From Minisyncoccia bacterium (GTDB lineage: Bacteria > Patescibacteriota > Minisyncoccia > Phycocordibacterales > Phycocordibacteraceae): a stretch of DNA of 64,000 bases. Location of the stretch: the NCBI GenBank assembly GCA_038228545.1, contig JBBRPE010000003.1:64442-128441 (forward strand), written 5' to 3'. The translations under genes were made by a program, and so were the position numbers. Below, one piece after another: positions 3,996 to 42,979 of this stretch; the stretch's first letter is position 1, and every line of letters starts with the position of its first letter. The notes under the pieces were generated by a model. That model was not told the origin of the DNA. It worked only from the letters and a program-made list of their open reading frames with translations, and made no database searches.

Positions 3996-5027
3996 CTATC
4001 TGCCTGATGCAGACCAGTGCGGTGGGTCGTTCGGCAACTGATTATAAAATCCATACTGTCCGGCATGAGCTCTGAGCCACGTGTATGCGCCCGGTCCGAG
4101 TCGTATATCAACAGCAGTTCCTGACGTGTGATTCGAGCCATTGCCTCCAAGCGAGCATGGCACCGCGGCAGTTCTGGTGGAACACACAGCACTGCCATTC
4201 ACCAGACGACACCCGTTGTTATTCCACGCAGCTGTCTGGTCGTCTGGAGATCGATACCCAGACGACACCCGCAAATCTACACCTTCTCTGAGGGCAGCAG
4301 TACGCATAGATACAAAACGCTGAACCGTATCTGCCAAATCTCTATGAGACCCGATGTCAGCAGAACTGGGGAATGGAACGAGCTGTGATTCTGGTATCGC
4401 TGTACAACTACCTCCGCCTCCGCCTGGGCCCGGGCCGCCAGTACCACCTCCAGGACCAGTTAGACTTCCAGCGTCCGTACTACCCACAATTCCGTTTGTG
4501 ATACTCCCAAACAAACCTTGGATACGCTGTGGTGTTGTTTCGCTTATGCACATGTCTTCACCATTGTCAGCAAGAATGCTATTCCATGGACCAAATGTTG
4601 AACCGGAAGCTGTACCGTCTGATGCATTTGGTTTATAGAGTTTTTTCATTATGTAATCGACGATGAGCCATGCGGCAAGCACGATTGCAAGTCCAATCAT
4701 CACATTAATAAACATCCCTCTTCCTTTGCTTCTCGCTTCAGCATTACTGCCGTTAAACATCCAAATAAATCCCGCGTAAACGAGCGCGAGCGTAGCGAAG
4801 ATACAGCCGAGAGAAATCATAAGATTTATGACATTTTGTGTCGTTGCAAGTACACAACCATAGGAAGCGGCCGAGGTATGGCCGGGAACACCATCGCAAT
4901 TACATTCTGTTGGGACTATCGGCCCGAAGAAATTTGCGGTTGCCGCATGGGCTGACACAGGAACTATAAGCACGATGAACGCCAGGGTGAGTCCTGCACT
5001 GAGCTTTGTTAGTGTGCTGTACTTCAT
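3996..5027 (-). CDS. Secreted fusion protein: T4SS-pilin-like (TrbC/VirB2-like) N-domain, Gly-rich linker, C-terminal peptidase M15 (VanY/LAS-type zinc peptidoglycan peptidase)
   Basis: Signal peptide (…VSAHA). Then IVPTECNCDG and two TM helices (LMISLGCIFATLALVYAGFIWMF … INVMIGLAIVLAAWLIVDYIMKK). These match the paralog array at 19.9-22.1 kb. Linker is GPGGGTGGPGPGGGGGS. The C-terminus has SGYRSPDDQ, HTSGTAVDI and DPPHW, which are M15 zinc-ligand motifs. Confidence 0.7.
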   Translation of the reverse strand: MKYSTLTKLSAGLTLAFIVLIVPVSAHAATANFFGPIVPTECNCDGVPGHTSAASYGCVLATTQNVINLMISLGCIFATLALVYAGFIWMFNGSNAEARSKGRGMFINVMIGLAIVLAAWLIVDYIMKKLYKPNASDGTASGSTFGPWNSILADNGEDMCISETTPQRIQGLFGSITNGIVGSTDAGSLTGPGGGTGGPGPGGGGGSCTAIPESQLVPFPSSADIGSHRDLADTVQRFVSMRTAALREGVDLRVSSGYRSPDDQTAAWNNNGCRLVNGSAVCSTRTAAVPCSLGGNGSNHTSGTAVDIRLGPGAYTWLRAHAGQYGFYNQLPNDPPHWSASGR

Positions 5028-5029
5028 TA

Positions 5030-5563
5030 TTACGGGAGCTTCACCGCTCCTGGACAGAAACTAAGTCCGACCGGGTCGGTGCCATAGGTATCACTCAATC
5101 CCGGACCTGCTGAAACATAAGTGTCGAGCGCACAAAGCACTGGATTAGATAGTTTGAGTGTGGTGCGCAATGCGTCTTCTGCAGCTATTCTCGTCGCTCC
5201 GAGAGGTTCCGCAAGAAGTGTAACAAGCACGCGTGCCTTACCTCCATTTTGGGCCGGAGGTACATAAGTTATAAGAAAAGTAGAATACTCTGAGCCTGCA
5301 ACACGATACCCGGACACCGGATCTGCCCATGCGGGCTGGTCTATTTTTGTAAAATCAGGAACTGCTACTTTTGACCCATCGCTCAGAACGATAGTGAGCT
5401 GGTTACCAACGGGTATTACACTGCTCCCAAGACCTCCAAAGGGAGAGGTCGTTGCTGTACCGGATGTGACGGGTGAATACGTTTTTTTAATCAGCCAGTA
5501 CATTCCGAATACGGCGAATACCACGAGAAGTACTGCCAACCCTATAGCCAGCGGCTTATTCAT
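5030..5563 (-). CDS. Hypothetical membrane-anchored protein
   Basis: One N-terminal TM helix. Lies between the two pilin-hydrolase fusion genes and is probably in the same operon. Confidence 0.5.
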   Translation of the reverse strand: MNKPLAIGLAVLLVVFAVFGMYWLIKKTYSPVTSGTATTSPFGGLGSSVIPVGNQLTIVLSDGSKVAVPDFTKIDQPAWADPVSGYRVAGSEYSTFLITYVPPAQNGGKARVLVTLLAEPLGATRIAAEDALRTTLKLSNPVLCALDTYVSAGPGLSDTYGTDPVGLSFCPGAVKLP

Positions 5564-5587
5564 AAAAAAATTGTATCATGCATGATT

Positions 5588-6631
5588 TTAGCGAGCCTGA
5601 CATCTTGGGTCGGACGACCTTGCTCCTGGAACTGCGCAACGAGTCGCCGAGCATTGCCATGCAGAAAGATTCTGTGTGTACAGACTACAGGCCACCTGTG
5701 TGTTAGTTTGACCATTTTGGGCGGCCGAAACACAGTCCTGATAGAGACGTTCCTTACCGGGTACAACCGAGGAGTCACATCCACCGAGTCGTTGACCCGC
5801 ATAGTGGAGCGCGTTTCCCTCGCATCTTTGTGTAAACGCAGTCGTACAGGCTATACCGTTCACTCTAAGGGGCGAGGTTGTGAGGTTAATCTGCCAGAGC
5901 CCAACAGAGTAGCTCCGCCCGTTACCACGATCCAATTTATCCGAGGTGGAAAGGATGGCGACTTGTCCGCCCGCACTCTCGAGATTGCAAGTTCTTGACG
6001 CTGCTTCTCCAAGAGCTGCGAAGCAAGTACTGGATAGACTCTGCACACTACACGCTCCGCTTGCAGGAAGAGTACAACTCCCTCCACCCCCCACTCCACC
6101 AAAACCACCTCCTCCACTTCCAGCGTTCGTGCCTCCCACGACGCCATTTGCAATACTTCCGAATAGTCCTGGGATTACTGTCGTCTCCCTCGGTTGTATA
6201 CACCAGGAGCCTGCCGCTGCAGGAGAGAGAATTTTATTCCACGGACCATAGGAACTTTCGTTGTAGAGCGTCTTCATGATGAAGTCTACGAACAGCCAGG
6301 CAGCAAGAACGATGAACATACCAATAACGACATTCAGTAACATACTCTTCGCCTTACTGCGCATTTCGGGATTTGTCGGATTGAGCATCATACTTGCGCC
6401 TGCGTAGGCTGCGACAAGAACGAATGCAATAACCCCAATGGAAACGGCCGCATTCATAAGGTTCTGAATGAGTTGCAGTACACCTCCGTAATCACACGGA
6501 CATGCGGTGCACTCCGTCGGAACTATTGAAAAGGTTGGGTCAAGAAGCGATAAATTTGCGGCATACACGGGAAGAGCCGCGCTTACAAAAAGAGTAAGCG
6601 AGAGAGAAGTAACCAGGAGAGCCCTACGCAT
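5588..6631 (-). CDS. Secreted fusion protein: T4SS-pilin-like N-domain, Gly-rich linker, C-terminal lytic transglycosylase-like (GH23/SLT-like) domain
   Basis: Start set at MRRALLVTSLSLTLFVSAALPVYA (signal peptide). IVPTECTACPCDYG plus two TM helices are paralogous to 3996..5027. Linker is GSGGGGFGGVGGGGS. The C-terminus has ES…(30 aa)…GLWQIN and HYAG, which resemble the SLT catalytic E-S and GLMQ/AYNAG motifs. Confidence 0.6.
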   Translation of the reverse strand: MRRALLVTSLSLTLFVSAALPVYAANLSLLDPTFSIVPTECTACPCDYGGVLQLIQNLMNAAVSIGVIAFVLVAAYAGASMMLNPTNPEMRSKAKSMLLNVVIGMFIVLAAWLFVDFIMKTLYNESSYGPWNKILSPAAAGSWCIQPRETTVIPGLFGSIANGVVGGTNAGSGGGGFGGVGGGGSCTLPASGACSVQSLSSTCFAALGEAASRTCNLESAGGQVAILSTSDKLDRGNGRSYSVGLWQINLTTSPLRVNGIACTTAFTQRCEGNALHYAGQRLGGCDSSVVPGKERLYQDCVSAAQNGQTNTQVACSLYTQNLSAWQCSATRCAVPGARSSDPRCQAR

Positions 6632-6814: not shown

Positions 6815-6885
6815 GGGTCCATAGTTTAGTGGTAGAACATCGGTCTCCAAAACCGATAGTGTAGGTTCGATTCCTACTGGGCCCG
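6815..6885 (+). tRNA. tRNA-Trp (anticodon CCA)
   Basis: Cloverleaf readable by hand. Acceptor gggtcca/tgggccc with discriminator g. Anticodon loop ctCCAaa. T-arm ggttcgattcc. CCA is not encoded. Confidence 0.8.
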
Positions 6886-7006: not shown

Positions 7007-7684
7007 TCAGCCACCATTCTTTTTCGGACGTCCGACTGTCCGGAGAGTTTGCTCGAGACCGTGTCTCTTCACCATGGTATCAAGCCACACGTCGTTCCCA
7101 AACGGAATACTCTTTCTTTCAGACTGTTCGAGTGCTTCTTCTTCGCTTGGGGTCTGCGGCTCGTCGAGCCATGCAAGATAGTCAGGGGGAGAGGATACGG
7201 GCCAGGCTGAGAGGAGTTTCTGTTGTTGTGCAGTACCACTTTCTCTTCGCCAGGCACTTCCCCACCTCCACTGTGGTGCACTCTTTACCAAGTTTGCTTT
7301 CTTAGCGTTTCGCTCAACGTATCTAACCAGAGTTAGAAAATACTTGTCCTCTCCACAGAGAAAGGACTTGTAGCGTCCCTGATACAGATGACCTTCGCCG
7401 ACCGTTCCTTTTGCGATATGCCATCGGCGGGTATGAGTGTTGGTGACCCAAGACATGAATTTCGAGAGATCGCCGTCTTCTTTCGGGTACAGGACAAGAT
7501 GCCAGTGATTGGGCATGAGGCAATACGCGAGTATGCGCATATCGAAGGTTTCTGCTGCTTCTTCCAGGATGGTCTCGAACATGCGATAGTCGTCAGGAGT
7601 GTCGAAAATCTGAGCACGGACATTGGCGCGATTAAGGACGTGATATACATGTTTTCCCACGTCGACACGTTCGATGCGTGGCAT
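7007..7684 (-). CDS. Y1 (HUH) transposase, IS200-like / REP-associated tyrosine transposase-like
   Basis: HuH motif in YCLMPNHWHLVL and conserved HVYHVLNRANVRAQIF. At 225 aa it is longer than classic IS200 TnpA, so it may be RAYT-like. Confidence 0.7.
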   Translation of the reverse strand: MPRIERVDVGKHVYHVLNRANVRAQIFDTPDDYRMFETILEEAAETFDMRILAYCLMPNHWHLVLYPKEDGDLSKFMSWVTNTHTRRWHIAKGTVGEGHLYQGRYKSFLCGEDKYFLTLVRYVERNAKKANLVKSAPQWRWGSAWRRESGTAQQQKLLSAWPVSSPPDYLAWLDEPQTPSEEEALEQSERKSIPFGNDVWLDTMVKRHGLEQTLRTVGRPKKNGG

Positions 7685-8534: not shown

Positions 8535-8993
8535 TTAGCAGTTTGTCGCTACGCCGAGCGCAGCTGCCTTCTGAGTAGATGTACTCGTGCTATCAACGCA
8601 CCAATAGAGGGCGGTATTAGTTTTAAGCTGGGCTGACATAGCCCACGCGGTGGCAGAACTGTTACAGGTAACTGCAGCAGAACCAGAGCTCGCGGCGCCG
8701 TTTTTCATACTGACAATACTCGGCACGTTATTTATAGGAGTCGTTGCTTGGCATACGTCAGTTGCAGCAGATCCTTTGTTGTACGAATTACCATTAGCAT
8801 CATAAAAGAGCTCCGCCTGTGCGAGCGCACTGTGGAGTGAGGCCTTTATGGCGGCGTCAGCACCTTTTTGACGTGCTGTACTGAGCGAGGCTAATACGAC
8901 TGAAGAAAGTATGCCAATAATGGCAATGACAACGAGGAGTTCTATGAGAGTGAAGCCTTTTGGGTGGGAGAGAGTATCGTGGTTCATTATCAA
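8535..8993 (-). CDS. Type IV pilin (prepilin-type N-terminal cleavage/methylation domain)
   Basis: G|FTLIELLVVIAIIGILSSVVLASL, the classic class III signal. C-terminal Cys pair. Confidence 0.85.
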   Translation of the reverse strand: MIMNHDTLSHPKGFTLIELLVVIAIIGILSSVVLASLSTARQKGADAAIKASLHSALAQAELFYDANGNSYNKGSAATDVCQATTPINNVPSIVSMKNGAASSGSAAVTCNSSATAWAMSAQLKTNTALYWCVDSTSTSTQKAAALGVATNC

Positions 8994-18202: not shown

Positions 18203-19318
18203 ATGTTCCTCAACAAAAATATCAGCCGTAATATGTGGATAGTGGCCCTCACGCTCATCGCGTTCGGCTTCTACTACGCATTCCTGGGTCCTCGCTGGCT
18301 CATGATTGTGGGTGCCCTCGGGTGTTCCATCTTCCTCTTGGGTCAGGAGACCATCAAAAACGACCCTCTCGAGGTGGGTTTACTCACCTTTTGGGGCCGA
18401 CGACTGGAAGTCGTCATCCGTGAAGGCAACAAGCTACTTGCACCGTTCTTTCCGTTCATGATCGGCGTCATCAAGATTCCGGTTGGACGAGAAGTACTCG
18501 AACAGAAGTTTGAGGTCGTCGCCCGCAACAAGCAGGTGGACGCTAACGGCAACGTCGAGTTCCAAATGGCAGGCAAGTTGTCTGTCGAAATTTCCCTCGT
18601 CTTTCAGCCTGACTATGAGGCTCACAACGCGGGATACCGCCTGAAGCGCTATCTGATCTCCGGTCGAGCGGCCGGCGTGAAAGTAATGTTGGAGCAAGTG
18701 CTCGTCACCTACACCAGGTACGCAGCGCTTACGCATTCCTGGAATGTCTTCATGTCGCTCAAAGCCCCTCTGGGGGCGGCGATCATCACGAAGATTGCAG
18801 GGTCCCAGATGCGGTCTTTGAATCGCGTTGCTGGTACTATTCCGGCAAACGATCTTCTACTTGAAGGCGACGCCTACTGGGCGCGGCCTGAAATAACGGA
18901 AGCGAGTGCGGTCGAGTACCTCCTCGTACATCCTGTCGACAGTCCAGAGTACAAGAACCGCTATCGTGAAATTGAGCGCTTTCTCGAAATCGCGCTCAAG
19001 AACGGCGGCGGCGACGTGCTCGACCTCGGCATATTGTTGCAACGCGTCAACGTCGAAGCAATCGAACCCACCGGCGATCTCGCCGCTGTGGCCGATGACC
19101 CCGCCGTTGAAGACGTGCAGCGCACGTCTGAGACCAAGGACATTGCCACTGAGCTTGTTTTGGCTCAGATGTACCGCGATGTCGATCCCAGCATGAGCCT
19201 CAAGGACGCTCTTGAGTTTGTCCGCGTGAACCGCGGACGTGCGAAAGAGCTCATTGTCCGCTCAAGCGGCAACCCCGCCGTCGATGCAGCTGCGCTGTTC
19301 GGCAACCTCAACCACTAG
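18203..19318 (+). CDS. SPFH/band-7 (stomatin/prohibitin-like) domain membrane protein
   Basis: N-terminal TM then a core resembling SPFH (LLTFWGRRLEVVIREGNKLLAPFFPFMIGVIKIPVGREV). Long C-terminal coiled/acidic tail. Confidence 0.5.
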   Translation: MFLNKNISRNMWIVALTLIAFGFYYAFLGPRWLMIVGALGCSIFLLGQETIKNDPLEVGLLTFWGRRLEVVIREGNKLLAPFFPFMIGVIKIPVGREVLEQKFEVVARNKQVDANGNVEFQMAGKLSVEISLVFQPDYEAHNAGYRLKRYLISGRAAGVKVMLEQVLVTYTRYAALTHSWNVFMSLKAPLGAAIITKIAGSQMRSLNRVAGTIPANDLLLEGDAYWARPEITEASAVEYLLVHPVDSPEYKNRYREIERFLEIALKNGGGDVLDLGILLQRVNVEAIEPTGDLAAVADDPAVEDVQRTSETKDIATELVLAQMYRDVDPSMSLKDALEFVRVNRGRAKELIVRSSGNPAVDAAALFGNLNH

Positions 19319-19327
19319 GAGACACCT

Positions 19328-19870
19328 ATGGCTGCACATGCCACACCGCCTGTCGCGCCGCGCGCGACAGGCAAGAACTGGCTCCCCGCCACACTCATGA
19401 AGTGGGTCGGGAGTCTCTCGGTGCTATTCGTTGTTGGTGCCATCGTTTTCGGAGTGATGGTACCCTTCATCGGAAGGTTATTCCACCCGCAGCCTACCCA
19501 ACAAAATCAGGCAACGGCTGGTGATAGCCACCAACGCAGCCAGCAGAGCGCAAGCTCTTCTGCACCTGCCCGCGTCGAGACCTCGCCCGTCGCTCTTCCG
19601 GCACCGCTCACTATCCAAGTGCCGGTATGCGGAGATACGGCGAATCGAACTTTCTCGACGCCGACGCCTATTCCGAGTCGCGTCTTCGTGTGTTCCAGCC
19701 GCAACAGCGGATGGAACTACCAAGCACACGACCGGAGCTCGTCAGACATCTCCGACGCCCAATGGGTGGACGGGCCAGGTGTGCACGGCAATGGCGTTCG
19801 CTTCTGCTCGACTACCGGGCAGGCCTACACCATGGACCTAACGTGGTCCAACACCGAAGGCGTCTGCTAG
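19328..19870 (+). CDS. Hypothetical membrane-anchored protein
   Basis: RBS AGGAGA 6 nt upstream. Translationally coupled to the SPFH gene. One TM helix. Confidence 0.5.
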   Translation: MAAHATPPVAPRATGKNWLPATLMKWVGSLSVLFVVGAIVFGVMVPFIGRLFHPQPTQQNQATAGDSHQRSQQSASSSAPARVETSPVALPAPLTIQVPVCGDTANRTFSTPTPIPSRVFVCSSRNSGWNYQAHDRSSSDISDAQWVDGPGVHGNGVRFCSTTGQAYTMDLTWSNTEGVC

Positions 19871-19932
19871 ACACCATCGGCTTGATCTTTCCGAGCCCTC
19901 TTCGCGCAAGCGTTGGGGGCTCTTTCTTTTAC

Positions 19933-20208
19933 TTAATGCGCTGGAGTGAGAGGAACACCGAGCGTTGACGAGACGGTTGCAGTAAGGAGTGCAATGATTG
20001 CGCGTGCACCGAAGATAATAACAAGGCCAATGATTCCCCATATGATGTGCTGTTGACCGGTCTTTCTTTTTTCATCATTTCCGGCGCCTTGTATGAATTC
20101 AACAACGCCCCATACAAATACCACAAAAGCGGCAAGCACCATAAGCTCAATGAGAGGGTTCAGTATTGCGTTCTCGACTTTAACGAGAAAGGCATCGAAG
20201 GCAGGCAT
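19933..20208 (-). CDS. T4SS-pilin-like (TrbC/VirB2-like) protein, N-terminally truncated paralog
   Basis: LMVLAAFVVFVWGVVEFIQGAGNDEKRKTGQQHIIWGIIGLVIIFGA matches the family core. No signal peptide. Separated from the upstream paralog by a terminator at 20226-20250. Confidence 0.5.
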   Translation of the reverse strand: MPAFDAFLVKVENAILNPLIELMVLAAFVVFVWGVVEFIQGAGNDEKRKTGQQHIIWGIIGLVIIFGARAIIALLTATVSSTLGVPLTPAH

Positions 20209-20273
20209 ACCCTAATACTAGCAGAACCCCGCGCCAGAGGCGCGGGGTTCCGTGGAGAAAGCGAACAGTCTAA

Positions 20274-20633
20274 CTAGCGGCCCTGTGTAGTGTAGGGAGC
20301 GGTTGGATACGTCGGTGTGGATGGGTTGAGGTTGAAGGTACCAATAAGAATGTGTACCAAGCCCCAAACCGAGACCATGACAAAGAAGCCGATGAGACCC
20401 CAGAGCATGAGTTGCTTGCCGCTTTCACGCTTCTCTTCATCATGTCCGCCCTGAATGAAGTACTGGAAGATACCCCAGATGAAGACGATGAATGCGAGTG
20501 CGAAAACGATAGGCACCGCGACGTTGTTGATAAGGTCGATAACTATTCTGCTCGCATCGTTGACGCTGTTCACCTGCGCGAAGGCAAGGAACGGGAGAGC
20601 AAAGGCAGCACCGATATAGCCGATTTTCTTCAT
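20274..20633 (-). CDS. T4SS-pilin-like (TrbC/VirB2-like) protein
   Basis: Signal peptide (…LAFA|Q). Two TM helices flank the GGHDEEKRESGKQLMLWG motif. Confidence 0.65.
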   Translation of the reverse strand: MKKIGYIGAAFALPFLAFAQVNSVNDASRIVIDLINNVAVPIVFALAFIVFIWGIFQYFIQGGHDEEKRESGKQLMLWGLIGFFVMVSVWGLVHILIGTFNLNPSTPTYPTAPYTTQGR

Positions 20634-20736
20634 AATGTGTGATTAGTATAACCGCGTAGGTTCTCCTATAGGATAGCGCGAGGGCGAGTTCCGTCAATGG
20701 AATACGGGGCGCTATGTGGAAAACAAAGGAATCTCG

Positions 20737-21267
20737 TTACGGAGGCGTTGGATTGGAGTTAATGATGGTTGTACCTGAATTACTTGGTGCTGGTGTTTGT
20801 GTCGCACCACTCGATGGGAGTGTTGTCTGTGTCTGGGCTGCAGGAGCGTTCGACTGATTAAACACCGGGTACTGCGGACGAACGGCAGAACTGAGGCCGA
20901 GCGTGCCGTTTATGACATTAATCAAGCCCCATACGGAAAGCATGATAACGAACCCGATAAGTCCCCACAGGAGAAGTTGCTGGCCTTCCTTACGCTTCTC
21001 TTCATTACTGCCACCGAGGATGAAGTAACGGTAGATACCGACGATGAAGACAACGAATGCAAGAGCAAAAACAATAGGAACAACAATACTATCGATGAAC
21101 GAGATGCCGCAATTGAGAAACGTGCCGAGATTCGTAATGTCGCAACGTCCGGTGCCGCCGGGTGCAAATGGGTCCGTTGGTGCGGCGTAGGCCAGCTGTG
21201 TGAATCCGAGAAATGCCACTGAAACGAGTGCAAACAGGCGAGCGATAAGAATACGGAAAGATGTCAT
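20737..21267 (-). CDS. T4SS-pilin-like (TrbC/VirB2-like) protein
   Basis: Same core (VVPIVFALAFVVFIVGIYRYFILGGSNEEKRKEGQQLLLWGLIGFVIM). C-terminal Thr/Pro/Ser-rich tail. Start taken at MTSFRILIARL. Confidence 0.6.
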   Translation of the reverse strand: MTSFRILIARLFALVSVAFLGFTQLAYAAPTDPFAPGGTGRCDITNLGTFLNCGISFIDSIVVPIVFALAFVVFIVGIYRYFILGGSNEEKRKEGQQLLLWGLIGFVIMLSVWGLINVINGTLGLSSAVRPQYPVFNQSNAPAAQTQTTLPSSGATQTPAPSNSGTTIINSNPTPP

Positions 21268-21309
21268 ATATATGAAGCGTACCAAGGACGGATAATCGAG
21301 CAAGCTAAG

Positions 21310-21645
21310 TTATGCACTGGTGCCAAGAAGAGTCGTGACGAGGATTTTAATTATTCCCCACACACTGAAGATAATGACCATCCCAACCATGGCCCATATG
21401 ATGAAACCGCGGCCTTGCTCCCGATTCTCTGCTCCGCCCGTAAAGAAATACCGAACGATGCCGATAACCAAGAATAGGAACGCGAGTGAATACAAGAGAG
21501 GAATAACACCCGTGTCAACGAGCGGGACTATCTTCTGGTCTACGAGCTGCTGAAACGTCAGGCCGGCTGTGCTTGTGGTGGCAAAGACCGGAAGTGCTGT
21601 CGTAAGGAGTGCGCCAAGCCCAATAAGCCTCTGTACAATTTTCAT
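21310..21645 (-). CDS. T4SS-pilin-like (TrbC/VirB2-like) protein
   Basis: Signal peptide plus core (LAFLFLVIGIVRYFFTGGAENREQGRGFIIWAMVGMVIIF). Confidence 0.65.
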   Translation of the reverse strand: MKIVQRLIGLGALLTTALPVFATTSTAGLTFQQLVDQKIVPLVDTGVIPLLYSLAFLFLVIGIVRYFFTGGAENREQGRGFIIWAMVGMVIIFSVWGIIKILVTTLLGTSA

Positions 21646-22103
21646 GAGCCAAGACCGGCAACGGTCGCAGTAATAACTACTTCAATGGCTTTCGCCCCGA
21701 GCAAAATAAGTCCACCAATGAGCGTCCATATGAGAGCGCTACGTGCTTTCGATATTTCTTCCGGATTACCTCGGGCAAGAACGAATAGGAATCCGACGTA
21801 TACGAGCATGACAACGAGAAGTACAGAACCGAGCTCAACGACCGCACCAAGTATTGCATCTATGAGTTTCGGTAGACTATCAATATTGCCAAGTGGGTTC
21901 TGCAGCACTGCGGTGCTGCCATCAGAAGCCGGGTTACCTGTTACTGGTGTTGCGGGATTCCCTGTGACGGGAGTGGCAGGATTACCAGTTACCGGAGTCG
22001 GTTCAGCATGAGCAATTGGAGCTGAAATACAGAAAACGGCGAATGCTAGTGTAGCGAGACTTACTACGACAATGTGTGATGAGGAAGTGCGAAGAGTACT
22101 CAT
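21642..22103 (-). CDS. T4SS-pilin-like (TrbC/VirB2-like) protein with tandem PVTGNPAT repeats
   Basis: Signal peptide. EPTPVTGNPATPVTGNPATPVTGNPA occurs three times. Core LLVVMLVYVGFLFVLARGNPEEISKARSALIWTLIGGLILL. Start overlaps the upstream gene (ATGA). Confidence 0.65.
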   Translation of the reverse strand: MSTLRTSSSHIVVVSLATLAFAVFCISAPIAHAEPTPVTGNPATPVTGNPATPVTGNPASDGSTAVLQNPLGNIDSLPKLIDAILGAVVELGSVLLVVMLVYVGFLFVLARGNPEEISKARSALIWTLIGGLILLGAKAIEVVITATVAGLGS

Positions 22104-23407
22104 TGTAGTGCCGCTGTTAGGGATTGATCCGCGGCGACCAGTGCGTCCCGGACGCTCAACTGGCCGCTTACGATACCGTTAATCATATCAGCGAAAACAC
22201 GGTCGGTGACGGCGGGTGCTGGGGACAGCCACCCTTTTGCCTGTAACGCTCCGGCGTTCAGTATAGGTGCATAAATATTATCGCTTGCAGCGGTGAGGAG
22301 CGCACGATTCGATGGAGCCATACCAAGTGCAGTGGCTGCTGTCGTAACCTCGGTCACAGCCCCTAGAGCGCTAGCAACACGGAAGGCTCCACTAGAGTTA
22401 TGGCTCACCTTCGGTATTGCAAAGGCGTAGGCGAGCGCGTAGTCGGTCTTGGAGGCACTTGTCTGTGGCTGCGGTATTTGTGCCATATCAAAATCGAGAT
22501 TGGGGTTCGCACTCTTTAAATAGGCAAGTTCAGAGCCGTAGCCCACATAGAATGCAGCATCCCCGGCAAGGAAACTCTGACGTGCGTCCGTCTTTGAACG
22601 ATTCCAGCTGTAGACAGTCTTCGCGGGGTCTGCGAACTGTGTGTAGAAAGAAACGGCAGACTCTCCTGGAGAACGCGCAGCGCTATCCGCTGCTCCAGAG
22701 GAAAGCGTACTGCGGAATATGCCGGACGAATATTCAACGAGCGAACTGCCCGACTGCAACATCAAAAGAGAAATAATAGCGCGTGCGTCCGGAATGTTCT
22801 GATAGGTGCCAAATGGTATGGCGCTCTTTGAAATAACGCCGGCATCTGACTTTACCGTCAGGTGCGGTGCCAGACCGACAACCGCTTCCCAGGTTGTTGG
22901 TACCTGCGGCACGCTCGCGCTTGAGAGCATGGTGCGGTTGAAGTACAAGACGAGTGGGTCCGCGACGAACGGCACCGCATACGTTCCATTCGATGTCAGA
23001 AACAATTCGTATATAGGAAGGTATTCATCTCTATAGGTCCGCTCGGGGACAGAGGAAAACGGAATGACACTTATCTTATTGCGTTCAGCAAGCAGGTGCT
23101 CTTGGTCGGTAATGATGAGGTCTGGACCGTTTCCAGCTGCAAGCGCGTCCGCAAGAAGCGTATCGAAGCTATCTGTGGATTGCTGTACGTACGTAACTTT
23201 TCCGAATTCCTGATGTGTGCGCTTTAAGTCTTCAAGTGTGCCAACCATAGCGGTAGCGGAAAGCGTTCCCCATATCGTGACGGCACCTACGGGTTTGGCA
23301 CCTCCGAATCCTTTAAAGGTTGAGAAAAGCACAAGACCGCCAACCGCGAGGAACGCGAAGACCGAAATCACGATTATTTGGAACGGGCGCATGTTCATCA
23401 TGGACAA
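22100..23407 (-). CDS. Extracellular solute-binding protein (ABC transporter SBP family 1-like)
   Basis: N-terminal TM/signal anchor. MalE-like segments (GPDLIITDQ, VPFVADPLVLYFNRTML…PTTWEA). Confidence 0.55.
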   Translation of the reverse strand: MSMMNMRPFQIIVISVFAFLAVGGLVLFSTFKGFGGAKPVGAVTIWGTLSATAMVGTLEDLKRTHQEFGKVTYVQQSTDSFDTLLADALAAGNGPDLIITDQEHLLAERNKISVIPFSSVPERTYRDEYLPIYELFLTSNGTYAVPFVADPLVLYFNRTMLSSASVPQVPTTWEAVVGLAPHLTVKSDAGVISKSAIPFGTYQNIPDARAIISLLMLQSGSSLVEYSSGIFRSTLSSGAADSAARSPGESAVSFYTQFADPAKTVYSWNRSKTDARQSFLAGDAAFYVGYGSELAYLKSANPNLDFDMAQIPQPQTSASKTDYALAYAFAIPKVSHNSSGAFRVASALGAVTEVTTAATALGMAPSNRALLTAASDNIYAPILNAGALQAKGWLSPAPAVTDRVFADMINGIVSGQLSVRDALVAADQSLTAALQ

Positions 23408-23940
23408 GTAAAAAGTATTGAATAGTGATGTGGTCCAGCTCGATATGATTTTACCTTATGAAATCCCCTCGTGATGAAAAGTTCCTCTGCTTCGTGCTCG
23501 GAGACGACATGCTTTTCGTGCGGACCGATGCCACCATACGCTCCCGCCCAGTCAGTCACCAATACCTTTCCGCTCGGTTTTAGGATTCGTCGTATCTCGG
23601 TAACTACCACGTCGCGGTTTTCGAGTTGAAACAGGGTGTTGGAAAGAATAACGGCATCAAGAACTCCCTCGCGCAATTTCGTGCCGCCGGGTTTCTCAAT
23701 GTTCCCCCATATCGTTTCAATATTTTTGAACTTCTTTTCGCTTGCGGTGTCTCGAATATGTTTCAGTACATCTTCCTGCACGTCCACTGCATACACATGG
23801 CCGGTGGCTCCCACGATACCTGCAGCCGCGAGCGCGTAGTGACCTACACCTGAGCCAAGGTCGCCGACTTTCATACCGTCCGTAAGTCCCATCTGAAGAA
23901 TATTCTTCGTAGGGTTCGCAAAAAGGTCCTCAAGGTGCAT
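23398..23940 (-). CDS. Class I SAM-dependent methyltransferase
   Basis: Motif I VGDLGSGVGHYAL. Small at 180 aa. Confidence 0.7.
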   Translation of the reverse strand: MHLEDLFANPTKNILQMGLTDGMKVGDLGSGVGHYALAAAGIVGATGHVYAVDVQEDVLKHIRDTASEKKFKNIETIWGNIEKPGGTKLREGVLDAVILSNTLFQLENRDVVVTEIRRILKPSGKVLVTDWAGAYGGIGPHEKHVVSEHEAEELFITRGFHKVKSYRAGPHHYSILFTCP

Positions 23941-23999
23941 ACCATAAAAATAGCACGCGCCGAAGCAAAGCTTCGGCGCGTGCTATTTCACTACGTGGA

Positions 24000-24338
24000 C
24001 TACTGCCCAAGCATCTGTAGCGTTACTTCACCATTTTTATGAAGAGTAACTGCATAGGAATGCCCTGAAGGACTGGTAAACGGCACCGAAACGTCGACGT
24101 GCTCGGTAAGCGGACGGCTATGGTCATACTTATCTTTTCCCCTATCTTCCGCAGAAGTTGCGTTGAAATCCGCAATCCACTTCACGAAGTTTGATTCCGG
24201 TGTGCCAGCTACCTTCATAGCCATCCAGAGGTTAAGTGCTTCGCCTTCAATAGTGTGCTCTAGCGCGCTATACACCTTCTCCTTGTCGGTCAGTACTGAG
24301 GATTCAGGACGCTGCGAGAATGAAGGTACTTGTTCCAT
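24000..24338 (-). CDS. Hypothetical protein
   Basis: 112-aa ORF in an operon-like position downstream of gyrA. No recognisable motif. Confidence 0.4.
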   Translation of the reverse strand: MEQVPSFSQRPESSVLTDKEKVYSALEHTIEGEALNLWMAMKVAGTPESNFVKWIADFNATSAEDRGKDKYDHSRPLTEHVDVSVPFTSPSGHSYAVTLHKNGEVTLQMLGQ

Positions 24339-33501: not shown

Positions 33502-34029
33502 CTAGCATCCACCTGTAAATGAGCCGATGCCAATATATGCATTATTAACTCCTGAGCACTGACCGTTCGATATCGTGCCACACCTGCCCGTACCAATCTG
33601 CGACGCTTTATAATTATTCATATTTTCAGGCGTGAGATACGTCAGAATGCAGTAGTCGTTGGCAGTTCCCCAAAACAGTACACCAGCTGCCCCTCCAATA
33701 GTGGCTGTGCGCGGATCGCTCACCTTACCGATATACGCTGTGAGCGCCGAGGTGAGATTGGACGCACTGGGTGTGCCACCAATCGGGTTTCCGGAAAATG
33801 TTGGGGAATCAAATGAAGTCCACGTACCTCCCGTATCGGGATAGTGTCCATAGTCGGCATTAAATGCTTCCACTGCCTTTTGTATTTCCACCATTTCCTG
33901 AATACGGCGTGAATCATTGCCTTTTATGCGTGCACTGTTCAGTGATGCAAGCACCACTGATGACAGTAGTCCGATAATGGCTATGACCACGAGTAGTTCA
34001 ATAAGCGTAAATCCCTGTGCTGTTTTCAT
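33502..34029 (-). CDS. Type IV pilin (prepilin-type N-terminal domain)
   Basis: MKTAQG|FTLIELLVVIAIIGLLSSVVLASL. Start set at MKTAQG. The upstream part of the ORF lacks support. Confidence 0.8.
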   Translation of the reverse strand: MKTAQGFTLIELLVVIAIIGLLSSVVLASLNSARIKGNDSRRIQEMVEIQKAVEAFNADYGHYPDTGGTWTSFDSPTFSGNPIGGTPSASNLTSALTAYIGKVSDPRTATIGGAAGVLFWGTANDYCILTYLTPENMNNYKASQIGTGRCGTISNGQCSGVNNAYIGIGSFTGGC

Positions 34030-34031
34030 AC

Positions 34032-34316
34032 TTAGTGCTGTCCAGCGGGGTTCGGTCGCGCAGGACCGAGCGTCGTAGGTGAATTCGATTGAACTTTCGG
34101 TACACCTGTGTGAGAAAACAGAAAAATACCCGCAGCAAGTAGTGACGCAACGACAGTTACACCAAGAAGGACTAATTCCGCCTGGTGTCCGGTCTTTACA
34201 ACCTTTTTCTTCACGAGCCACGCAATCATTCCCGTCGGCGCACTCCGGACAATTTGAATATTGCTTACCGTATCGGCCCCGACCTCATCGATAAATTCAA
34301 CACCATTGACTTCCAT
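34032..34316 (-). CDS. Hypothetical small membrane protein (94 aa, C-terminal TM) upstream of the pilin
   Basis: Start at MEVNGVEF. Stop overlaps the pilin start. Confidence 0.35.
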   Translation of the reverse strand: MEVNGVEFIDEVGADTVSNIQIVRSAPTGMIAWLVKKKVVKTGHQAELVLLGVTVVASLLAAGIFLFSHTGVPKVQSNSPTTLGPARPNPAGQH

Positions 34317-41628: not shown

Positions 41629-41775
41629 GAAATAAAAGAATTTCCTGTAAGCAGCCGTAGAATACGAAGCCAGCGAGGTGAGTCATCCGACCGAGGTCTT
41701 CGAGTGGCGGTGCGAGCCGATGGCTGGCGACTTATTCTACGTGTCGCCCTGGAAGGCGGAGTCCTCTTTTATTTT
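41629..41775. repeat. Intergenic repeat, family Y copy 1
   Basis: gaaataaaaga…[long imperfect hairpin ccgtagaata…tattctacg]…tcttttattt. About 95% identical to 56211-56346. Sits immediately 3' of the ATP-grasp gene stop. Confidence 0.6.
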
Positions 41776-42979
41776 AAGATTGCGAGCGGAGCACCATATC
41801 CCAAATAAGTGCCGCTACATTCCGTGGTTCCCCCTCAAACGGCAAATGATGATTATCGAAAAACGGCATTGAATTACATTCGATTACTCCGCATCGCTCC
41901 TGTTCCTTCCAGGACTTCGTAATGTCGTCGATGATGAAATCAATGCCCACAATTGATGCCTTAAGCACCCGCGCCACTTCTTCAAAGAGTTCCGCGTTGT
42001 CCGGATGTACGTCATCAGTAACGTCAGCCGTCGTACCTCCGACGCCCCAGTTTATTTTTTGATTGAGTAGTACTTTCTGGCAGTTTTCAGGAATACTGGA
42101 AAAGGTCATCTTTTGCCAAGCAAGCTCTTTTTCTGCATTGTCATCGAGCTTCATCTGGTGGAAATACGGTCCACTACGCTTCGGGTTCTTATTCGCTTCT
42201 TCTACGAGTTCAGCCACGGTGTGCGTGCCGTCACCAATAACGTATGGCTGGTCACGCCGCAGTGTTGCTGCCAGTTTTCCATCGACAACGGTCGCGCGAT
42301 ATACCGGGCCCACCAGCTCCTCTTCTATGACGGCTGCAGGGCAAATTTGAGTAGCAATCTTAAACGCGCGTTGGAGTTCTTCAAGAGAATCAATGTGCAA
42401 TAGCGTGTGGCGAGAGCCGGAACCGGAATACGGCTTCACAATAACAGGTGGTGTAAGTCCGTTATATATCTTCTTGGCTGCCCACCAATTACTTGCTGAG
42501 CCTCCGCGGGCGACCGGCAGTCCCAGCTTTGAGAAATGTTTCTTAAGAAGTGCTTTATTATCCAGCCATTGAACACGTTGTATAGAGCGCGGTGGAAGCG
42601 GTATACCCTCGTACACTATCTTCTTCCCATCGGGCAATCGCGCCATAAATATATTGCGCGGTAGATTAAAAAGACGTACTTCTTCTATCTGAATTCCACG
42701 AGTATCAGCTTCCTTCCATAACATGAGCGCAAGAAGTTGTGTGCTGTCGTCGGGCCGAGAGATGCGTGTGGCCCAGCCAAGACGCATAAAAAGCTCAAGC
42801 AAGTATGGCGTGAGAGCACGCTCTATGGCGGACGCTCCTTTGCCAAGCACGACCCCGACAAAGCCTGGGTCAAACATGGCGCGCATCGAATCATCGATGA
42901 GAATCGTGTAGTACGTCATCCCGTGAAAGATAGGATCGCCACCGCACTCGGCACACGCTTTTGCTTGAGGCATATTCAT
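41774..42979 (-). CDS. ATP-grasp domain protein (RimK/cyanophycin-synthetase-like ligase)
   Basis: C-terminal half has ATP-grasp pattern (VIVKPYSGSGSRHTLL…VIEEELVGPVYRATVVDGKL…GVIECNSMP). Confidence 0.5.
   Translation of the reverse strand: MNMPQAKACAECGGDPIFHGMTYYTILIDDSMRAMFDPGFVGVVLGKGASAIERALTPYLLELFMRLGWATRISRPDDSTQLLALMLWKEADTRGIQIEEVRLFNLPRNIFMARLPDGKKIVYEGIPLPPRSIQRVQWLDNKALLKKHFSKLGLPVARGGSASNWWAAKKIYNGLTPPVIVKPYSGSGSRHTLLHIDSLEELQRAFKIATQICPAAVIEEELVGPVYRATVVDGKLAATLRRDQPYVIGDGTHTVAELVEEANKNPKRSGPYFHQMKLDDNAEKELAWQKMTFSSIPENCQKVLLNQKINWGVGGTTADVTDDVHPDNAELFEEVARVLKASIVGIDFIIDDITKSWKEQERCGVIECNSMPFFDNHHLPFEGEPRNVAALIWDMVLRSQS

Follow-up and report, generated by a model that had tools for sequence, protein, structure and literature searches.

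We analysed a 64,000-nucleotide (nt) stretch of the genome of a Minisyncoccia bacterium (GenBank assembly GCA_038228545.1, contig JBBRPE010000003.1, positions 64,442 to 128,441), hereafter called the window, in whose numbering all coordinates are given. Its minus strand carries, at 19933-23940, a conserved operon of the class Paceibacteria (Patescibacteria, or candidate phyla radiation, CPR), which encodes five different VirB2-like subunits of the family PF18895 (T4SS_pilin, where T4SS stands for type IV secretion system), here named P1 to P5, together with a solute-binding protein (SBP) and a methyltransferase (MTase). The reading that we favour, with a probability of roughly 0.55, is that P4 is the major pilin and P1, P2, P3 and P5 are minor pilins of a patescibacterial T4SS, encoded apart from the genes for its ATPase and channel and partly co-transcribed with the SBP and the MTase. 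Tandem PF18895 arrays in Patescibacteria have already been published (Wang 2023; Quinonero-Coronel 2025), so that the kind of object is known; the configuration, with its link to an SBP and an MTase, its location away from virB4, its five positional orthologues and the promoter and terminator signals of P4, is previously undescribed.

The locus consists of seven closely packed genes, in the order MTase, SBP, P1, P2, P3, P4 and P5:

23398..23940, minus strand: class I S-adenosylmethionine (SAM) methyltransferase, 180 amino acids (aa), with Methyltransf_31, Methyltransf_11 and Methyltransf_25 matches
22100..23401, minus strand: membrane-anchored family-1 SBP, 433 aa (SBP_bac_8, 71.2 bits; SBP_bac_1, 68.8 bits)
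21642..22103, minus strand: P1, PF18895 pilin of 153 aa with signal peptide and N-terminal repeat extension (PF18895, 37.8 bits)
21310..21645, minus strand: P2, short PF18895 pilin of 111 aa (PF18895, 36.9 bits)
20737..21267, minus strand: P3, PF18895 pilin of 176 aa from its ATG, with C-terminal tail (PF18895, 38.3 bits)
20274..20633, minus strand: P4, PF18895 pilin of 119 aa, the proposed major subunit (PF18895, 46.4 bits)
19933..20208, minus strand: P5, short PF18895 pilin of 91 aa without signal peptide (PF18895, 38.6 bits)

From the MTase to P2 the packing is tight, with gaps of a few nt or overlaps, and an ATGA joins the SBP stop to the P1 start (22103-22100) and the P1 stop to the P2 start (21645-21642). 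In these respects the original prediction, which had been made from the sequence without database searches, described the locus correctly: the five consecutive small minus-strand genes were all confirmed as open reading frames (ORFs; 19933-22103), both ATGA overlaps (at 21642 and 22100) are present in the sequence, and the gene in front of the pilins, which it had called SBP-like, has Pfam SBP_bac_8 and SBP_bac_1 matches and operon-like packing. The SBP ORF extends over 22100-23407, and translation probably starts at the ATG at 23401. For P3, the mechanical ORF start is a TTG at 21303; the ATG start gives 20737-21267, and its 176-aa product was also called on Logan contig L001. A protein identical to P5 is recorded in both NCBI and Logan.

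In a Pfam scan, P1 to P5 all scored above the PF18895 gathering score of 26.6 bits, with 36.9-46.4 bits, and no other Pfam family came near its own threshold for any of them. Their best NCBIfam match was in every case NF045849 (Mbov_0395 family), at 26.2-37.1 bits, all under the cut-off of 40. The T4SS-pilin-like identity first proposed is therefore upheld by the hidden Markov model (HMM) check, in which PF18895 was matched by all five and the PF04956 (TrbC/VirB2) model remained below its threshold of 27.9 bits. We found a signal peptide and two hydrophobic helices with a short charged loop between them in the pilins, P5 being a hairpin without the signal peptide, as had been noted for this last copy (19933..20208). 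The motif GG.(D/N)EEKR..G.Q..(L/I)WG(L/I)IG, thought earlier to be common to the five, is complete in P3, P4 and P5 and degenerate in P2 and P1. Identity to the core of P4 is 55% for P3, 31% for P2, 30% for P5 and 17% for P1; P3 is thus the closest paralog of P4, with 55% core protein identity and 71% DNA identity over 190 nt.

The members differ in what is attached to the hairpin. Specifically, the N-terminal extension of P1 contains the repeat PVTGNPAT, PVTGNPAT, PVTGNPAS, so that the exact threefold PVTGNPAT reported previously holds for the seven-residue unit PVTGNPA and fails at the eighth residue, which is S in the third copy. As DNA, the three units of 24 nt are only 76% alike, with nearly identical peptides; the extensions of P1 orthologues measure 4 to 296 aa. 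P3 is the paralog in which a long Thr/Pro-rich tail had been noticed; Ser and Gln as well as Thr and Pro are abundant in it, and the C-terminal tails of P3 orthologues range from 8 to 360 aa. The C-terminal tail of P4 is short (11-22 aa across orthologues), and at the end of its signal peptide stands the nearly invariant junction AFA-Q, which is of the signal peptidase I type. The Gln after the predicted cleavage site presumably resembles that of Agrobacterium VirB2. A hydrophobic leader is lacking in 41 of the 47 P5 orthologues. An AlphaFold2 model of P4 (40 homologues, mean predicted local distance difference test, pLDDT, of 76) consists of a helix at residues 3-18 (signal) and a hairpin of helices 24-61 and 66-100. 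In the membrane, the charged loop GGHDEEKRESGK would lie on the cytoplasmic side and the two pilin termini on the outer side. This placement agrees with the outward extensions of P1 and P3, and with two further PF18895 proteins of the window (3996-6631, see below), in which extracellular enzyme domains follow the hairpin.

To compare the locus across species, we used an SBP-alignment scan, keeping one genome per species, which gave 80 loci, with SBP identities from 64% down to 36%, that include Kaiser-, Adler-, Nomura-, Wolfe- and Zambryskiibacteria. Seventy-six of these extend past the SBP gene, and in all 76 the SBP is followed at once by two to seven PF18895 genes on the same strand, usually five; counts below four occurred solely on contigs ending within about 700 nt of the last pilin gene, and array size among complete loci is four to seven. 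There was no other PF18895 gene within ±10 kb of the 76 loci. For example, the independently annotated relative L002, which has precomputed Pfam labels, reads GyrA, MTase, SBP, five T4SS_pilin genes (171, 108, 226, 119 and 85 aa, in order), alanine racemase, RbfA and IF-2. The named homologues of SBP and P4 are Parcubacteria, Paceibacteria or 'Patescibacteria group', with the exception of one 67.8-kb metagenome-assembled genome labelled Bacillota, and the NCBI name for the orthologues is 'pilin'.

Within the 47 five-gene loci plus the window (48 loci, also used for the signal counts given below), the best match lay at the same position in 2170 of 2256 comparisons for P1, 1692 of 2256 for P2, 2136 of 2256 for P4 and 2154 of 2256 for P5. 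The best matches of P3 were divided between the P3 and P4 positions, because P4 is its closest paralog. The five copies are therefore positional orthologues, kept in constant order in 47 other species. Median identities over all loci were 81% for GyrA, 64% for the MTase, 61% for P4, 55% for P5, 51% for P1, 50% for the SBP, 45% for P3 and 44% for P2; in the nearest relatives, P4 is 84-91% identical, compared with 85-90% for GyrA and 56-64% for the SBP.

The two genes in front of the pilins are constant partners. The SBP has an N-terminal hydrophobic anchor instead of a lipobox, belongs to family 1 by its SBP_bac_1 and SBP_bac_8 matches, and is a distant relative of the sugar and maltose SBPs in PDB, which its profile matched with E-values down to 1e-11. 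We found 528 homologues at E <= 1e-10; among the 120 matches listed, identity was 50-65% (the window's own copy aside) and the named ones were Parcubacteria or Paceibacteria. The MTase lies directly upstream of the SBP in 78 of the 80 loci, with a median gap of 3 nt, and the junction from the SBP to P1 measures -4 to +15 nt in 67 of 76 loci, 18 of these junctions being ATGA overlaps. The MTase is probably the first gene of the first transcription unit, and the SBP may play an accessory part, as a receptor or in substrate capture. No ABC permease or ATPase to serve the SBP was found in a Pfam scan of 54 ORFs of the window, nor within ±10 kb of the locus on L002. Adjacency alone is weak evidence that the SBP and MTase function with the pilins, because synteny from GyrA to IF-2 is kept throughout the lineage; the overlapping and near-overlapping junctions are a stronger argument for co-expression than adjacency.

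Expression signals were predicted around P4 and P5, at the following positions:

20715..20723, minus strand: conserved box TTTTCCACA, about 17 nt upstream of the -35 element of P4
20670..20697, minus strand: candidate sigma-70-type promoter of P4 (-35 TTGACG, 16-nt spacer, -10 TATCCT), from a consensus scan
20252..20259, minus strand: conserved box TTCTCCAC, immediately 5' of the P4 hairpin, from an alignment of 36 P4-P5 spacers
20222..20252, minus strand: GC-rich hairpin after P4, of 14 bp (one G-U pair) with a TCT loop, a proposed intra-array terminator or attenuator
20215..20223, minus strand: extended -10 element TGCTAGTAT, 6 nt upstream of the P5 ATG and directly after the P4 hairpin
19893..19922, minus strand: hairpin after P5, between convergent genes, at -16.4 kcal/mol

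The signals that set P4 apart are conserved in relatives. The pattern TTGAnn-N16-18-TAnnnT occurs upstream of P4 in 44 of the 48 loci, versus 0-2 of 48 for each other pilin gene, and the pattern T[TG]TCC[AC]CA (also recorded as TT(T/G)TCC(A/C)CA) lies upstream of P4 in 40 of 48 and upstream of P2, P3 and P5 in none. The 78-nt stretch that contains the P4 hairpin folds at -32.9 kcal/mol; hairpins of -12 kcal/mol or below were found behind P4 in 44 of the 48 loci (median -27) and behind P5 in 47 (median -23), compared with medians of only -7.5 to -12.5 kcal/mol for the best hairpin after P1, P2 and P3. Nine of the 11 consensus pairs of the P4 hairpin showed compensatory changes in the alignment of 36 spacers. 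The terminator-like hairpin that the first reading had placed between P4 and P5 (at 20226-20250) is thus real, at 20222-20252. The median gap between P1 and P2 is -4 nt.

P5 and the MTase appear to share a different type of start. In front of P5, a TAnnnT hexamer stands 5-8 nt before an in-frame start in 43 of 48 loci (42 of the 43 at 6-8 nt), with a preceding TG in 38, and only five loci have a Shine-Dalgarno-like core in the spacer between the -10 and the start; with the extended -10 element only 6 nt from the ATG, a leaderless P5 mRNA is predicted. For the MTase, such a hexamer lies 5-9 nt before an in-frame start in 72 of 78 loci (62 of the 72 at 6-7 nt), with TG in 61, and the start in the window reads GTGCTATTTT-TATGGT-ATG. 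The layout upstream of the MTase (23941-24000, minus strand; 78 loci), which comprises a TGTTGATT-like box, a GC hairpin, GTGCTATTTT, 6-7 nt and the ATG, mirrors that of the P4-P5 spacer. A conventional -35/-10 promoter, which we also considered for the MTase, occurred in only one of 76 loci, the -35-like box being 26-30 nt from the -10 and too distant for a standard promoter, and was replaced by the extended -10, leaderless reading. Over the window as a whole, a -10-like TAnnnT hexamer lies 5-8 nt upstream of the start in 21 of 64 genes and a Shine-Dalgarno-like core in seven of 64; the hexamers often follow a terminator hairpin directly and overlap with its T-rich tail, which suggests that leaderless mRNAs and fused terminator-promoter modules may be widespread in the source genome. 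Three transcripts are accordingly predicted for the locus: a leaderless MTase-SBP-P1-P2-P3 message, P4 alone, and a leaderless P5 alone. The boxes TTTTCCACA and TTCTCCAC, which are similar to each other, could be an operator for a shared regulator. As a genome-wide element, TTCTCCAC was rejected, with 13 matches in the window versus 7.4 expected; TCTCCAC and TGCTANNAT were rejected in the same sense, their counts in the window being near chance.

Taken as a pilin set, the array would work as follows. Each pilin would span the membrane as a hairpin of two helices, its short charged loop inside the cell and its N- and C-terminus outside. P4 would be the main building block of the filament; it is likely to be the major subunit because it is plain, best conserved and, by prediction, separately transcribed. 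P1, with its N-terminal repeat extension, and P3, with its Thr/Pro-rich C-terminal tail, would be decorated minor subunits, and P2 and P5 short ones. As extrapolated from other Patescibacteria, the subunits would be drawn from the membrane and assembled by VirB4-type T4SS machinery encoded elsewhere in the genome, and the product would be a surface filament or a conduit for contact with the host cell. A major/minor pilin set was among the suggestions of the original prediction, and it fits the conservation of P4 and its own promoter and terminator signals. An analogy of regulation is found in the pap operon of Escherichia coli, in which a stem-loop after papA raises its expression over the downstream minor subunits. 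Both operons have a strong stem-loop after one subunit gene inside a multi-subunit operon, although the protein families and assembly pathways are unrelated and P4 also has a predicted promoter of its own.

The putative link to a T4SS draws on other lineages and on three relatives that carry the operon. Ca. Southlakia epibionticum has six PF18895 genes (SEML1_0014-0019) next to VirB4-, PrgI- and VirB6-like genes, and for its epibiotic growth every one of these genes is essential (PMC10633639). In a survey of 3,035 Patescibacteria genomes, VirB2-like pilins were found in 1,948 VirB4-positive assemblies and near virB4 in 1,135, with 441 arrays of 2-11 pilin genes whose identity averaged 25% and reached 54% at most (PMC12102498), and a 2025 review regards these pilins as the first candidates for a pilus from a Gram-positive-type T4SS (PMC12857230). 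C7867-007 (L018), C7867-008 (L028) and GW2011_GWA1_56_13 (L074), which carry the operon, are entered as 'VirB4: Yes' in Table S1 of PMC12102498. In Table S3 of the same paper, PF18895 genes stand beside virB4 in many genomes and some arrays lie far from it, so that adjacency to T4SS genes is a usual but not a strict feature.

Compared with these published arrays, exemplified by SEML1_0014-0019, the array described here belongs to the same Pfam family, is likewise a tandem of five to six small paralogs with alike predicted structure and divergent sequence (17-55% within-array identity here, versus the published average of 25% and maximum of 54%), and is likewise chromosomal in a monoderm ultra-small bacterium. 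However, it lies neither in nor near a T4SS locus, is preceded by an orphan membrane-anchored SBP in every relative examined and by an MTase in 78 of 80, and forms, in at least 47 species, a fixed set of positional orthologues, one of which is flanked by conserved internal promoter and terminator signals. In PMC12102498 and PMC10633639 the link to the SBP goes unmentioned, the words 'solute' and 'ABC' being absent from the former and 'substrate-binding' from the latter. With the VirB2/TraA/TrbC pilins (PF04956) the proteins share small size, a cleavable signal peptide and two hydrophobic helices with a short charged loop, but they differ in having no adjacent virB genes and no match to solved pilin sequences or folds, and in forming five co-conserved paralogs, of which one has no signal peptide and two bear long N- or C-terminal extensions. 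The pilin-like protein NF045849 of Mycoplasma integrative and conjugative elements (ICEs), as the best NCBIfam match of all five, is consistent with a common T4SS-pilin-like superfamily of wall-less and monoderm bacteria, although the matches are below the cut-off and there is no ICE context here.

Several observations weigh against the assignment to a T4SS. No VirB4, VirD4, VirB6, PrgI or TrsD family was found by Pfam among the 54 scanned ORFs of the window, which include every ORF of at least 206 aa, in agreement with the earlier statement that VirB4, VirB6 and VirD4 genes are missing from the 64 kb; VirB4, VirB6 and VirD4 are thus absent for about 20 kb on one side of the array and about 40 kb on the other, and no T4SS genes appeared within ±10 kb of the Pfam-labelled L002 locus either. 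The lack of a T4SS neighbourhood, which the original prediction had named as grounds for abandoning it, holds for the window; three operon-carrying relatives are, however, listed as VirB4-positive. The genes to which the array is linked in this lineage are those of an SBP and an MTase, not T4SS genes. The PF04956 model was matched only weakly, by P1 (18.4 bits), P5 (12.2 bits) and a VanY fusion protein described below, that is, at 12-23 bits versus 27.9, and P2-P4 had no match. Searched against PDB sequences, a profile of P4 orthologues gave chance matches to membrane helices only, with no solved conjugative pilin, and a Foldseek search of the P4 model against PDB gave nothing below E = 0.7, a helical hairpin containing little information; the relatedness to VirB2 and TraA therefore rests on the Pfam definition and on genomic association in other lineages. 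A T4SS filament is reported for no Patescibacterium in PMC12102498 or PMC12857230. Finally, the promoters, terminators and leaderless starts are sequence predictions only, and a fixed membrane complex would account just as well for the very high conservation of P4.

Such a complex is the rival that survives best, although we consider it unlikely: the five hairpins and the SBP would form a fixed hetero-oligomeric membrane assembly independent of any T4SS, either an SBP-fed uptake channel or an envelope scaffold, closer to a ring of c-subunit-like hairpins than to a pilus that polymerises. We know of no transporter of this kind. The orphan SBP is always linked, T4SS genes never occur within ±10 kb in the 76 loci, the subunit number is mostly five with a constant order, in close relatives the conservation of P4 matches that of a housekeeping protein, and neither an ABC permease nor an ATPase for the SBP was detected in the 54 scanned ORFs. 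P5 would need no signal peptide; hairpin proteins of the YidC type insert without one. In addition, an exhaustive search of the PF18895 family (25,731 clusters at E <= 0.001) revealed many single polypeptides with two to eight tandem in-frame hairpins (among them P0324, P0328, P0332, P0325 and P0329), joined by linkers of 30-40 aa without internal signal peptides, for example one of 820 aa with eight hairpins. These 'polypilins', of which we found no description in PMC10633639, PMC12102498 or PMC12857230, imply that different hairpins are packed next to each other; a filament of subunits with outward termini would be compatible with them, and a fixed membrane assembly fits them at least as well. 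On the other hand, in other Patescibacteria the family lies inside a T4SS locus and is essential together with it, the separate promoter and terminator signals of P4 suggest unequal subunit amounts, unlike a 1:1 complex, and array size varies from four to seven among complete loci.

A second alternative, slightly less probable again, holds that the PF18895 hairpin is a mere membrane anchor for the surface display of low-complexity tails or enzymes, with no filament or channel. The variable outward-facing extensions of P1 and P3 would suit it, and so would a second PF18895 locus in the window. A local HMM built from the five pilin cores detected exactly two further members:

3996..5027, minus strand: PF18895 hairpin (39.4 bits) with a VanY D,D-peptidase domain (40.3 bits); TrbC match of 23.2 bits, below threshold
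5588..6631, minus strand: PF18895 hairpin (45 bits) with a Cys-rich lysozyme-like (SLT_3-type) domain

The array of five pilin-like genes therefore stands as predicted, whereas the window total is seven PF18895 genes. Both additional proteins consist of a signal peptide, the PF18895 hairpin, a Gly-rich linker and then an enzyme-type domain, which places the C-terminus of the hairpin outside the cell. For the protein at 5588-6631, the orthologue P0246 matched PF18896 (SLT_3) with 28.2 bits (threshold 27), P0290 and P0260 being below threshold; among 46 sequences of the Cys-rich domain, E218 is invariant, in an E-S context, and S-x-G-L-W-Q-I-N is nearly so, as in lytic transglycosylases. A Foldseek search with this domain did not confirm the lysozyme-like fold. 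A 177-aa single-helix protein is encoded between the two fusions, and the trio is kept between ClpB and MiaA in two relatives (L084 and L085). Hairpin-tethered cell-wall hydrolases recall the VirB1-type enzymes and would be a further, indirect tie of PF18895 to envelope-crossing machinery. As an explanation of the array, however, simple anchoring meets the difficulty that P2, P4 and P5 have almost nothing to display, that P4, with its tail of 11-22 aa, is the most conserved member and has a dedicated predicted promoter, and that the five co-conserved paralogs remain unexplained.

More doubtful is the possibility that the MTase-SBP-five-hairpin operon is a self-contained surface machine peculiar to the Paceibacteria. 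In this uptake or contact device a sugar-like compound from the host would be bound by the SBP and handed on to a hetero-oligomeric conduit of the five hairpins, either independently of any T4SS or with a T4SS pilus as the import organelle. Hints of it are the invariable SBP link, the same five-member order, the absence of an ABC permease and the two to eight fused hairpins found elsewhere.

There is very little room left for the interpretation with which the original prediction had ended, that is, a pilin set of recent expansion that diversifies for antigenic or phase variation and whose last copy is decaying. It could appeal to the low identity of the paralogs (17-55%), to the peptide repeat of P1 and the low-complexity tail of P3, and to the tandem VirB2 paralogs of Bartonella and Anaplasma, which are discussed in this sense in PMC12102498. 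The comparison of paralog content between relatives, now made, gave no sign of recombination or switching, and the copies were stable. Specifically, the supposed paralog expansion consists of positional orthologues, in the same order in the 47 other five-gene species. P5, which had been suspected of decay or phase variation, is kept along with its own promoter and terminator signals: its form without a leader peptide is retained in 41 of 47 orthologues, its extended -10 in 43 of 48 loci and its hairpin in 47 of 48. Antigenic variation is at odds with a P4 that is 84-91% identical in near relatives, against 85-90% for GyrA. At the DNA level, the best pair of paralogs in the window (P3/P4) is 71% identical over 190 nt, with no long identical tracts, and Tandem Repeats Finder detected no array besides the diverged 24-nt repeat in P1, whose differences at synonymous sites (76% DNA identity) indicate an old repeat under selection. 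We thus found neither a switching device (simple repeats, an invertible element, or silent cassettes with long identical tracts) nor fast turnover of copies, and positional orthology, the conserved P5 and the lack of such a device together exclude recent expansion, decay of P5 and antigenic variation. With the Bartonella and Anaplasma genes the array shares the presence of several virB2-like genes in tandem, but its members are stable orthologues under strong purifying selection. The first description of the locus was therefore right in its observations and in the family, and wrong in its evolutionary interpretation.

Least credible of all is that P1 to P5 are unrelated small membrane or holin-like proteins that match PF18895 through hydrophobic composition, for although there are weak sub-threshold matches to many two-helix families (e.g. 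Phage_holin_3_6, 12.8 bits versus a cut-off of 28.4) and helical hairpins carry little information for fold searches, the PF18895 gathering score is exceeded by 10-20 bits with other families far under threshold, the loop motif and the positional orthology are conserved, and the neighbourhood consists of housekeeping genes, with no phage genes among the 54 ORFs scanned.

The window covers a housekeeping region of a small genome, with genes for ClpB, IF-2, alanine racemase, GyrA, FtsA, FtsZ, TsaD, LepA, MurJ, a class I aminoacyl-tRNA synthetase and peptidyl-tRNA hydrolase, in addition to RNase P RNA and eleven tRNAs; Rfam gave no known RNA family within the array. Two genes convergent with the array (18203-19318 and 19328-19870, plus strand) had no Pfam or NCBIfam match; their place is taken in L002 by the genes for a 469-aa Band_7 protein and a protein of 211 aa. 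It is here, between the array and alanine racemase, that the otherwise conserved region varies. An IS200-like Y1 transposase gene (7007-7684, minus strand; Y1_Tnp, 67.5 bits) lies between ClpB and the pilin-hydrolase locus, next to a tRNA gene (6815-6885), and is not at that place in L084 and L085. Two type IV pilin-like genes with an N-terminal methylation motif (N_methyl; 8535-8993 and 33502-34221, both minus strand) indicate that components of type IV pili are encoded in the genome as well, separate from the PF18895 proteins. The largest unassigned protein of the window is the 401-aa product of an ORF at 41774-42979 (minus strand), which had no Pfam match.

A large part of the uncultured bacteria are Patescibacteria, which apparently live attached to host cells. 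In the sole species with genetics, the T4SS and its pilin array are essential. The locus overturns nothing in this picture, but offers a handle on it: a five-pilin set in the same order across many Paceibacteria, which yields testable predictions on the roles of the subunits, with P4 as the major one and the others as decorated or minor. The orphan SBP and the MTase are two constant partners that PMC12102498 and PMC10633639 do not mention. If the link to the SBP is not functional, the locus would be an unusually well conserved example of a published gene arrangement; if it is functional, it would suggest substrate capture at the pilus, and hence import rather than export.

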